Shown one piece after another: positions 9,276 to 48,535 of a stretch of 64,000 nucleotides of DNA. The DNA lies in NCBI GenBank assembly GCA_951406725.2, contig OX597839.1, positions 37,882,001 to 37,946,000 of the forward strand, given 5' to 3'. Position numbers and translations under genes: made by a program. Origin of the DNA: Octopus vulgaris. Its lineage: Eukaryota. The notes under the pieces were generated by a model. It was not told the origin of the DNA. It worked only from the letters and a program-made list of their open reading frames with translations, and made no database searches. The first letter of the stretch is position 1; every line of letters begins with the position of its first letter.

Positions 9276-9321
9276 CGTCGAATGCTGGGCAGAGGGGTCA
9301 CACGGGAGAGCTAAGAAGAAG

Positions 9322-9442
<121 letters not shown>

Positions 9443-9443
9443 G

Positions 9444-9985
9444 GGCTCAAACTCAGCCAGAGACTCTGATGGATTCCCAGCAATGCTCCGTAAAACATGC
9501 AAAGGCGCTCTAACAAGATCACCTCATATTCTCTTCCAGAGCTTCCTCGCAACTGGGAGACTTCTCAAAATGTTAAAGAAAGACATAATATGTCCTAGCC
9601 ATAAGGGATGTAGCAGAGCAGATGCTAAAAATTTTAGTCCTGCCTCTTTAACCTCCCACGTCAGGAAGAAACTTATTGCGTTCCCTGAGGATAATGACTT
9701 GCTTCATGACACCCAGCATGGCTTTCGCCTTACACAGCTTTTCCAGCACTATGAATGGGTGCTGAAGCAATTAACGATTCACTCAAACGTCGATGTGATG
9801 AACCTCGACTTTGCAAAGGCCTTTGATAAGGTTGATCACGGGATGATATGTCATAAAACTACGGAGACTCGGCATAAGCAGGAAACTCGGAAAGTAGTTG
9901 CATGACTTCGTAGAAGACAGGAGCCAGACTGTAGCAGCCAACGGAGCTTTCTCCGAGGAGACAGTAATAGAAAGTGGAGTGGCTC
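9444..9985 (+). pseudogene. Non-LTR retrotransposon reverse transcriptase fragment (CR1/L2-like)
   Basis: Translation has [17 protein letters not shown]....NFSPASLTS, QHGFR, VDVMNLDFAKAFDKVDH; it continues after a frameshift as LRRLGI...DRSQTVAANG...SGV; deletions and a stop present. Confidence 0.9.
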
Positions 9986-28910: not shown

Positions 28911-29203
28911 GGCGCAGGCATGACTGCGTTGTGAAGAAGCTCGCTTTGTATGTAAAGATGTGCTTTCGAGTTCAATCCCATGTATATATATATATATATA
29001 TATGCGTGTGTGTGTTTGTCCTCCTAGCATTGCTTGACAACCAATGCTGGTGTGCTTATGTCCCCGTTACTTAGCGGTTCGGCAAAAGAGACCGATAGAA
29101 TAAGTACTGGGCTTACAAAAAGAATAAGTCCTCGGGTCGAGTTGCTCGATTAAAAGCGGTGCTCCAGCATGGCCGCAGTCAAATGACTGAAACAAGTAAA
29201 AGA
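28911..29203 (+). mobile_element. SINE B with internal deletion
   Basis: Diverged head GGCGCAGGCATGACTGCG plus near-consensus 3' half. Confidence 0.8.
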
Positions 29204-29220
29204 TATATATATATATATAT

Positions 29221-29883
29221 TATATAGAGGGCATTATTACACATAAATGCCGCACGCTAGGAGGGACTCTTAAAATCAAAACTACCAAAATAAACATATC
29301 GTACCGAATGCAAGTCTCGAAGCAAAGTCATTTAAAAACAGAATTTAGCTGCAGTTTTGACTTTAAGAGTCCCTCTAGCGTGCGGCATTTATGTGTAATA
29401 ATGCCTCTATATAATATAAATAAATATTTTCAAGGAAAAATTTACAGATTTTTTCTCTTATGAGGTTTTTCAAGCTGACTACTTGATAATTTCTTATGAA
29501 GATTTTATCCTATTTTTTAATTATAAATTTCACCGGAATAATTCAATACTGAATTTTTGTTCCGAAGACAGCACGTTGTTTACCGAAATGCAACACACAC
29601 ACAGCCCGCCATTTACATAGATGCTACGGTGGATACGATGGTTGTTCGTCTGGTATGTTGATTTTGTTCATTCATTATAAATCTTGAATTCGCTGTACTG
29701 ACGAGTAAGGGACGCAGCTAATGCGTTGATTACGAAATTAGTGGTGATCTTCAACTAAATTCTGTTTTTAAATGACTTGCTTCGAGACTTGCATTCGGTA
29801 CGATATGTTTATTTTGGTAGTTTTGATTTTAAGAGTCCCTCCCAGCGTGTGGCATTTATGTGTAATAATGCCCTCTATATAAT
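29221..29883 (+). mobile_element. Penelope-like element remnant with inverted and direct terminal repeats
   Basis: 29221-29353 is the inverted copy of 29750-29883; 29351-29413 is a direct copy of 29817-29883. Confidence 0.65.
29692..29755 (+). ncRNA. Type I hammerhead ribozyme
   Basis: CTGACGA 29698-29704; helix II GTAA/TTAC extended by GACGCA/TGCGTT; GAAA 29734-29737; helix III ATTA/TGAT with loop GTGG; cleavage triplet AUC after 29749; helix I damaged here but restorable (GCTGTA/TGCAGC) from the inverted copy. Confidence 0.7.
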
Positions 29884-29884
29884 A

Positions 29885-30133
29885 AGGGGGTGGTTGCGAA
29901 CCCTGCTGTACTTTTTTTTTTCACCACAACTTTCTATCACTCTTTCTTCCTGTTTCTGTTGTGCCTGTATTTCAAAGGGGACAGCCTTGTCACACTCTGT
30001 GTCACGCTGAATCTACCTGAGAACTACGTTAAGGGTACACGTGTCTGTGGAGTGCTCACCCACTTGCACATTAATTTCATGAGCAGGCTGTCCCGTTGAT
30101 TGGATCAACTGGGATTCTTGTTGTCGTAACCGA

Positions 30134-30135
<2 letters not shown>
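29885..30135 (+). mobile_element. SINE C 3' part
   Basis: GAGAACTACGTTAAGGGTACACGTGTCTGTGGAGTGCTCA...GTCGTAACCGACG matches the copy at 57601-57850. Confidence 0.85.
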
Positions 30136-30195
<60 letters not shown>

Positions 30196-30620: not shown

Positions 30621-31335
30621 TGTTTTATATTAACTTTTGAATGATGAAATAATGTATTTCACTCATAAAATTAGTTGAATTAATATAGCCATAATAATTA
30701 ATTATTGCTATATATATATATTTATATATATAGCAATAGCAATAATCCTTGGAGTGAAGTTTTAAACATTTACTGCATCACTACACGCGTTTCCCCGAAT
30801 CACATGTCTCTTGAGATCAAAGTCCGTATACGTAGGATGATTACAGTATATTCCGTCGTATCTGTGTTATATTACTCAACCAATCATCGCACTGGTCAAA
30901 AGGGATAATCATCCCTCTGGTTGAACATCCATTAATATCATATCGTCTGAAGAAATGAAGATGATTTACCCAACGCCCACGAATACTAAGGACTACACTG
31001 TAATCATCTCAAGAATACGGACTGTGATCATAAGAGACACGTGACTCGCAGAAACGCGCGTAGCGATGCGGTAAATGTCTATAAATTCCATTCAACGATT
31101 ATTGTTATTTTTACAATATTTATCCTAGGTTATATCGGTACAGCACGATGCAACCCCGCAAAAAGTGTTTCACCAGTCAGCACCATTAAACTGTGTCCGG
31201 CATAATGGAATAGGAACTTTATTTGCATATTCAAAACGTTTCCCGTAAACAAATTAAAAAGGTATATGTGCGTGTGTGTGTCTGTGTGTGAAGGTCTTCT
31301 ACCTCTGATTGACAGCCGGTATTAGCTTGCTTAAA

Positions 31336-32305
31336 GGCGGCGAGATGGCAGAACCGTTAGCACGTCGGACGAAATGCTCAGCAGTATTTCGTCTACCGTT
31401 ACGTTCTGAGTTCAAATTCCGCCGAGGTCGACTTTGCCTTTCATCCTTTCGGGGTCGATTAAATAAGTACCAGTTACGCACTGGGGTCGATATAATCGAC
31501 TTAATACCTATGTCTGTCCTTGTTTGTCCCTTCTCTGTATGTAGCTCCTTGTGGGTAGTAAAGAAATAGGTATTTCATCTGTCGCTACGTTCTGAGTTCA
31601 AATTCCGCCGAGGTCGACTTTGCCTTTCATCCTTTCGGGGTCGATTAAATAAGTACCAGTTACGCACTGGGTCGATATAATCGACTTAATACCTATGTCT
31701 GTCCTTGTTTGTCCCTTCTCTGTATGTAGCTCCTTGTGGGTAGTAAAGAAATAGGTATTTCATCTGTCGCTACGTTCTGAGTTCAAATTCCGCCGAGGTC
31801 GACTTTGCCTTTCATCCTTTCGGGGTCGATTAAATAAGTACCAGTTACGCACTGGGGTCGATGTAATCGACTTAATCCGTTTGCCTGTCCTTGTTTGTCC
31901 CTTCTGTGTTTAGCCCCTTGTGGGTAGTAAAGAAATAGGTATTTCGCCCGTCGCTAGGTTCTGAGTTCAAATTCCGCCGAGGTCGACTTTGCCTTTCATC
32001 CTTTCGGGGTCGATTAAATAAGTACCAGTTACGCACTGGGGTCGATATAATCGACTTAATCCGTTTGTCTGTCCTTGTTTGTCCCTTTTGTGTTTAGCCC
32101 CTTGTGGGTAGTAAAGAAATAGGTACTTCGTCTACCGTTACGTTCTGAGTTCAAATTCCAGCGAGGACGACTTTGCCTTTCATCCTTTCAGGGTCGATTA
32201 AATAAGTACCAGCTACGTACTGGAGTCGATGTGATCGACTTAATCCGTTTGTCTGTCCTTGTTTGTCCCTTCTGTGTTTAGCCCCTTGTGGGTAGTAAAG
32301 AAATA
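31336..32305 (+). mobile_element. Five-unit tandem SINE A array inserted in an old SINE B
   Basis: One tRNA head, then about 184-bp units ending AAGAAATAG near 31569, 31754, 31938, 32122 and 32306; 16-bp direct repeat GGTATTAGCTTGCTTA at 31318-31333 and 32306-32321. Confidence 0.9.
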
Positions 32306-48324: not shown

Positions 48325-48535
48325 ATAGCTGATCCTAACATGAACATCGAAAAAAACGCAACAACGCGAGGACGTGGGACCAGTATAGTGTTATTGGACG
48401 CTCAAGAAAGGAAGGAAAGAAGGAGGATTGAACGTTTCGAGCGGAGCTCTTCGTCAGAAACATAGAAAAAGGAAAGGTCCAAGGAAGGGAAGACGGAAAA
48501 AGAAAATCGCCAACGATACACACGCGGTCACATTG
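48325..48535 (-). mobile_element. Penelope-like terminal-repeat fragment, subfamily 2
   Basis: Homologous to 26205-26422 and 27073-27225; adjacent to (TA)n. Confidence 0.6.
48431..48457 (-). ncRNA. Minimal hammerhead motif with canonical core
   Basis: CTGACGA-A-GAGC-TCC-GCTC-GAAA-CG-TT; palindromic ACGT helix III as in PLE minimal hammerheads; helix I weak. Confidence 0.6.

Follow-up and report, generated by a model that had tools for sequence, protein, structure and literature searches.

A Hammerhead Repeat Family with Penelope-Like Insertions in Octopus vulgaris and the Position of Its 5' Ends Relative to the Predicted Cut

A hammerhead and opposed arms beside a TA tract

The 64,000-nucleotide stretch of Octopus vulgaris DNA analyzed here (the window), from a 2.8-Gb genome at G000:C26:37882001-37946000, contains a single complete hammerhead motif of the repeat family under study, a type I hammerhead with a two-part helix II on the plus strand at 29692 to 29755. 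By motif reading, CTGACGA lies at 29698 to 29704, GAAA at 29734 to 29737, and the AUC triplet (ATC in the DNA) at 29747 to 29749, followed by the 3' strand of helix I (strands at 29692 to 29697 and 29750 to 29755), with the predicted cut at 29749/29750; an earlier note made from the letters alone had placed this core correctly. The features of the type I class are present, namely, a CUGANGA and GAAA core, an NUH triplet (AUC or AUA in the family), and three helices with helix I open. The ribozyme of the direct copy in the window is nevertheless decayed, with two changes in helix I and two in helix III, and folding with the core forced open indicates that helix III and a proper helix I no longer form. 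The helix III self-duplex is calculated at -14.4 kcal/mol in L003, one of the nearest family members, versus -2.8 kcal/mol in the direct copy of the window. An Rfam scan of the 64-kb window returned zero matches at the gathering threshold.

Units are numbered here from the first base 3' of the predicted cut (+1). To the right of a (TA)n target tract (29203 to 29220), an inverted arm on the minus strand (29218 to 29354) runs from about +146 of the unit down to the predicted cut (segment -1 to 146 of L001). Its local alignment to the plus strand at 29749 to 29884 spans 137 columns at 96.35% identity (E = 1e-59), which confirms the claim of the earlier note that an inverted duplicate ends at the predicted cut. 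The homology of the arm ends at -1, and the AG at 29353 to 29354, a 2-nt microhomology that spans +1 and -1, matches both sides, so the true end of the arm is +2, +1, or -1. In place of the TTCAAC of the direct copy, the arm carries TGCAGC, a strand that pairs at all six positions (one G-U) with GCTGTA; the view that TGCAGC is the ancestral helix I allele gains support from L002 and L003, the nearest family members, which carry the same allele.

The direct part of the insertion, about 530 nt on the plus strand, consists of a 5'-truncated unit (29353 to 29527, about +70 to +250, with a tail region of about 104 nt) and, head to tail with it, a second unit (29528 to 29884, about -240 to +135). 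A partial direct copy had been described as ending at 29413; it is present (29353 to 29416 versus 29819 to 29884, 92.4% identity) but continues through 29527 into the next unit. The second unit has a deletion of about 25 nt near 29620 that takes out a TATA-like motif found in other copies. In place of the expected +136 to +250 tail, positions 29885 to 30137 (plus strand) hold a fragment of an unrelated abundant repeat, identified by very high contig depth and with its upstream continuation in loose ends. Because this fragment follows +135 directly, the right-hand tail was probably lost after insertion. The copy in the window is itself an ordinary decayed insertion.

Other repeats also lie in the window, whose SINE motifs and abundance of microsatellites have a cephalopod-like look. 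At about 15544 counted on the minus strand (about 48390 to 48460 on the plus strand), a different repeat has a minimal hammerhead-like motif (CTGACGAAGAGCTCCGCTCGAAACGTTC) that recurs in L182. A decayed non-LTR (LINE) reverse transcriptase (RT) fragment with QHGF and DFAKAFD motifs occupies 9315 to 9905 (plus strand), and SINE-like units of about 185 nt form a tandem array at 31298 to 32000.

A dispersed family with two fixed 3' ends

The unit is about 490 nt long and noncoding and has hundreds of copies in the genome. A DNA search for the family returned 2687 candidates (40 scored), one exact 22-mer of the unit has 402 genome matches, and the family is present in the sequencing contigs of four runs; no contig there reaches across the window junction, an absence that carries no weight for or against it. 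Tandem units lie head to tail at a spacing of 485 to 496 nt, for example, in L139 (three anchors, 492-nt spacing), L100, L101, and L102. We found no description of the family in the literature, a scope outside which lie repeat databases (Repbase and Dfam), supplements, and subscription papers.

Paired changes in helices I and II distinguish several subfamilies. From 86 distinct motifs, 49 were picked, and two irregular ones were removed; among the resulting 47 diverse copies, 92.2% of cells are paired (slid controls, 20 to 43%), although related sequences inflate such cell counts. Two-sided changes occur in 10 of the 20 hammerhead pairs (helix I, 4 of 6; helix II, 6 of 10), and the 82 cells with two-sided changes were reached by none of 500 shuffles. 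The invariance of the core is due in part to the pattern with which the copies were collected. Judged by this covariation, the hammerhead lies above chance at the family level, its structure being kept by compensatory changes. The family helix III is a 12-nt near-palindrome that would permit a strand swap between two units, an arrangement described for dimeric hammerheads in the available text of PMC4209133. Three otherwise intact copies (G000:C4:4372375, C1:21763174, and C5:4260375) carry 1- to 2-nt indels at or beside the predicted cut (an extra TA, a missing -1, and a missing +2); these could be ligation-junction variants or ordinary decay.

The 3' ends of the family are fixed at two places about 104 nt apart, at about +146 (short) and at +232 to +250 (long), and the 5' ends of the arms are variable. 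In a sample of 100 of the 402 exact 22-mer matches (those listed, fetched as 98 distinct contexts), 86 of 108 outer 3' ends are followed by (TA)3 or more within 24 nt, and 30 of 32 insertions pair a long with a short end. Among 104 insertions with opposed arms, a few of them segmental duplicates, both outer ends could be classed in 90, which comprise 86 long/short, 3 long/long, and 1 short/short case, the last being the window. The expectation for long/short if the two ends were independent is 45 (P = 2e-21). The signature of Penelope-like element (PLE) insertion is thus present in the form of an inverted 5'-truncated copy, a partial tandem, a tail on one end, and an AT/TA target, and the Penelope-like layout seen earlier in the window alone now has the support of the arm alignment, the 86/90 end rule, and the TA targets.

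The two arms of an insertion do not behave as parts of one folded cDNA. The direct part in the window holds sequence that is missing from the 137-nt inverted arm, so a fold-back copy of that arm is impossible. Of 85 two-ended insertions, 40 have a short-ended arm whose 5' reach exceeds that of its long-ended partner by more than 15 nt, a pattern for which two separately primed cDNAs are needed. These same observations leave the proposal that reverse transcription switched template at the ribozyme end without support. Rare variants shared within a locus (inverted pairs, 71 in 14,011 bases compared; tandem pairs, 37 in 8,778) were compared with regard to a circular or a linear multimeric template, a signal that is swamped by later divergence.

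Arm breaks around the predicted cut

The earlier note had read the junction in the window as run-off of reverse transcription at the ribozyme-made 5' end of the RNA. Arm breaks elsewhere in the family were counted in three tallies. The first used patterns equally sensitive to any break between +31 and -15; among the matches listed (100 of 272 and 100 of 107), rows judged broken by eye were fetched; left out were the window itself, rows intact but for small indels, and, of the three duplicated C12 loci, two. A set of 84 intact natural copies served as the reference for placing ends by anchored alignment, under three scoring settings. In this tally, 102 of 106 arms broke in range, over 46 positions. 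Exact +1 breaks numbered 5, versus 2.2 expected (P = 0.07; confidence interval [CI] of the fold change, 0.7 to 5.1), breaks at +1/-1 numbered 6, versus 4.4 expected, and breaks from +2 to -3 accounted for 12 to 13 of the 102, versus 11.1 expected (P = 0.31 to 0.43; fold CI, about 0.6 to 1.9). Between 19 and 21 of the 42 sliding 5-nt windows are as high as the one from +2 to -3, and position +14 has 8 breaks.

The second tally, which overlaps the first, covered the main subfamily genome-wide, with all 88 of 88 rows listed and read by eye; 4 were dropped as intact or spurious and 23 because they broke at the anchor edge (+9/+8). The remaining 61 breaks fall over 22 positions, with 3 at +1 (2.8 expected) and 15 from +2 to -3 (13.9 expected). 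A third list of patterns gave 76 rows with 32 true breaks by eye, and once the window is taken out, positions +1/-1 account for 8 of 31 breaks (P = 0.03) and the block from +1 to -3 for 10 of 31 (P = 0.30). For the subfamilies that lack TGTAAC, which include that of the window, 6 of 17 breaks in this tally lie at +1/-1 (P = 0.014), a group chosen post hoc; with two further row lists added, the count is 6 of 27 (P = 0.11). An early 2- to 3-fold excess at the cut, seen with patterns targeted to it (10 and 11 places), was gone once cut and control positions were placed in the same search.

Across the family, 91 of 98 arms are continuous across the predicted cut. Together with the flat tallies, this indicates that 5' ends in the family are not set by the predicted cut. 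The histogram of 5' ends is near-uniform, largely the outcome that the earlier note had itself named as counting against its reading, and with no significant excess at the cut the run-off reading of the junction is left unsupported. A weak excess at the cut of up to about 2-fold over 5 nt may exist, as may a minor run-off route, and the post hoc counts offer a hint of a cut-site excess in the subfamily group of the window. Because other copies have no significant excess of breaks there, the position of the window junction at the predicted cut is likely a coincidence; its agreement with the cut is not shown to exceed chance. In the literature (supplements and subscription papers lying outside this scope), we found no other test of copy ends against a hammerhead cut besides that in PMC11167929.

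Several arm junctions carry repeated 7- to 17-nt re-copies of the sequence that follows the cut (L150, L301, L149, L145, and L253). In L150 (G000:C15:23458572-23458648), three successive short re-starts begin exactly at +1, and in L149 and L301, re-starts lie at -3/-2, beyond the predicted cut. These short re-copies resemble end re-alignment by an RT or a repair polymerase.

Mobilization and comparison with known systems

The genome encodes Penelope-like elements with RT and GIY-YIG domains in frames of 781 and 574 amino acids, whose RT scores lie just below the Pfam cutoff. A GIY-YIG search returned 6136 candidates, with matches in 148 of 150 scored. The linked RT and GIY-YIG frame that the earlier note had suggested looking for was not found at the loci fetched, through 5' flanks, tblastn, or GIY-YIG loci: 66 free 5' flanks had nothing in common between independent loci except duplicates and simple repeats; tblastn with two PLE proteins against 235 unit-bearing loci gave matches in 8, none extending the unit on its 5' side; and among 50 GIY-YIG loci taken from the 148 listed matches, three contain the unit, never as a terminal repeat. 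The best resemblance between the repeat and a PLE terminal repeat (pLTR) in those 50 loci, between the short 3' end and the 3' end of PLE L193, is no better than that of shuffles. Two candidates were rejected: the GIY-YIG matches about 2 kb from units in L196 and L198 are separate insertions that face each other and are not contiguous, and the sequence upstream of L004, considered as the end of a frame, belongs to a different hammerhead repeat family.

We also found other elements in the course of these searches. A young Penelope-like family (L206 to L209 and L214, e.g., G000:C16:20835000-20842500) has many intact 781-amino-acid RT and GIY-YIG frames and an overlapping upstream frame, which joins the main frame where the sequence is rich in T. 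Its pLTR is long, with TGACGT/ATTGG motifs that recur, and the family also has a variant of the hammerhead-like motif (TTGATAA...GAAACATGT) and a choice of two 3' ends separated by about 40 nt. L199 (G000:C14:47992500-48002000) represents a second PLE family, with a partial 574-amino-acid frame and a hammerhead with a palindromic AGTACT helix III; its tail is on the inverted arm and absent from the direct arm, an asymmetry shared with the ~490-nt family. Another hammerhead repeat family (L061 to L090 and L004; 532 candidates) has a palindromic CACGTG helix III, and L004 is a chimera of it and the family of the window. In a single case, the long 3' end of a unit directly adjoins a similarly oriented fragment (L019:1208-1403) that encodes GIY-YIG and comes from a third PLE family, which could be a hint at the mobilizing partner or a chance target.

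The reading that we favor, with a probability of about 0.62, is that the window holds a decayed copy of the ~490-nt hammerhead repeat, which a Penelope-type RT supplied in trans placed in a TA tract, with one cDNA per DNA end and a 2-nt microhomology join that fell on the cut by chance. A Penelope-like protein carrying out two-strand target-primed reverse transcription would cut within the (TA)n target and prime one RNA-templated cDNA per DNA end, from start sites at about +146 and about +250; the cDNAs would extend to variable lengths and be joined by microhomology or short palindromes. The hammerhead RNA presumably cleaves itself in vivo. Given that arms read through a conserved ribozyme, the template would have run on across the cut, probably as a circle closed by re-ligation or as a multimer that stayed uncleaved. 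The direct ribozyme would have decayed, and the right-hand tail been lost, at a later time.

The same family and the same two-ended insertion would also accommodate run-off at the ribozyme-made 5' end for the arm in the window and for at most a few percent of arms overall. The microhomology interval includes the exact predicted cut, about 20 other arms end within +2 to -3, L150 re-starts three times at +1, and the 6/17 count in the subfamilies lacking TGTAAC leans the same way; against this, two unbiased tallies give no significant excess, positions +14, +16, +9, -10, and -13 are struck as often or more, L149 and L301 re-start past the cut, and for the element of PMC11167929 the available text reports no RNA-seq reads with a start or stop at the hammerhead cut. 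Given the absence of a significant excess and the 91 of 98 arms that cross, we consider run-off rather unlikely for this copy.

Much further from what was found is the possibility that the unit is the pLTR of an autonomous PLE whose frame-bearing copies were missed, the window being its 5'-truncated remains. The layout, the tail, and the preference for TA all match PLEs, and coding PLEs exist in the genome; however, the upstream side of a unit is taken up by a further unit, by a TA tract, or by unique flank, and the 66 flanks, the 235 loci, and the 50 GIY-YIG loci described above all speak against it, making it quite improbable. We give almost no credence to a single cDNA that folded back or, at the ribozyme end, changed to an antisense template, or to an inversion after insertion. 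At some junctions the sequence is palindromic, almost perfectly so, about GAATTC or helix III, and self-priming has been proposed for palindromic PLE junctions (PMC3846280, as far as its available text goes), but the fold-back version is largely refuted by the sequence that only the direct part contains and by the 40 non-nested insertions, and a random rearrangement would not pair a +146 end with a +250 end in 86 of 90 insertions.

A narrower form of the favored reading, which we put forward tentatively and without leaning toward it, is that of a retrozyme in which a dimeric Penelope protein copies a circular, re-ligated RNA through two strictly coupled primings, one per DNA strand and 104 nt apart, with run-off at the cut (the window and L150) reflecting a minority of linear templates. 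If so, the 86/90 end rule and the read-through of a conserved, presumably active cut would be genomic evidence that PLE machinery mobilizes animal retrozyme circles. Copies ending at the cut would have tied cleavage to template choice; in this family most templates were continuous across a conserved cut site, which favors circles or uncleaved multimers. The main by-products of the analysis are the negative test of ends at the cut and the end rule with its unusually long tail of about 104 nt.

R2- and HDV-type systems embody the idea that genomic copies owe the position of their 5' end to a ribozyme that cleaves itself. Unlike those, the family described here has no significant peak at the cut, and most arms read through it.

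On sequence grounds, and for the loci tested, the locus appears to belong to a new non-autonomous Penelope-type retrozyme family with PLE-like insertion rather than to an autonomous PLE, and the family fits the DNA-level definition of a non-LTR retrozyme, RNA-level features aside. Such retrozymes are described, in the available text, as tandem noncoding type I hammerhead units with circular RNAs (PMC7229834, Cervera and de la Pena 2020), and their derivation from PLE pLTRs has been proposed (Li et al., bioRxiv 10.64898/2026.07.22.740005, available in part). Like those of animals, the units here are noncoding, low in GC, arranged head to tail, each with a type I hammerhead, and dispersed as monomers to short multimers; a PLE origin and a circular RNA intermediate, proposed for the animal elements, would apply here as well. 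It differs from the animal retrozymes as described there in its unit length (about 490 nt versus the 150 to 450 bp quoted), in a helix II of two stems and a helix III that is a 12-nt near-palindrome, and in its inverted arms and two-end tail rule.

The available accounts of PLEs report inverted 5'-truncated copies, a tail of 30 to 40 bp at one of the two ends, and insertion at (TA)n (PMC8557442, PMC3846280). Like the EN+ PLEs Neptune and Poseidon (PMC8557442, PMC3846280, PMC11167929), the family combines a partial tandem with an inverted 5'-truncated copy, a tail on a single end, (TA)n or AT-rich targets, a hammerhead in the repeat, and microhomology at 5' junctions. Unlike them as described, it has no frame in the loci fetched, a tail of about 104 nt versus 30 to 40 nt, and a repeat unit that abuts itself directly. 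According to the available text of PMC11167929, the purified Anolis PLE protein is a predicted dimer that, in vitro, cleaves AT-rich DNA on its two strands and extends both; synthesis begins at two internal positions, which mark the limits of the tail. This activity is independent of hammerhead cleavage, and whatever the hammerhead may do in the Penelope/retrozyme cycle, it was dispensable in vitro. The layout of the octopus family fits such two-strand priming from two internal starts. The near-strict rule of one long and one short end is a countable in vivo match to the two in vitro start sites, and the family supplies a short noncoding RNA with which priming from two start sites can be tested.
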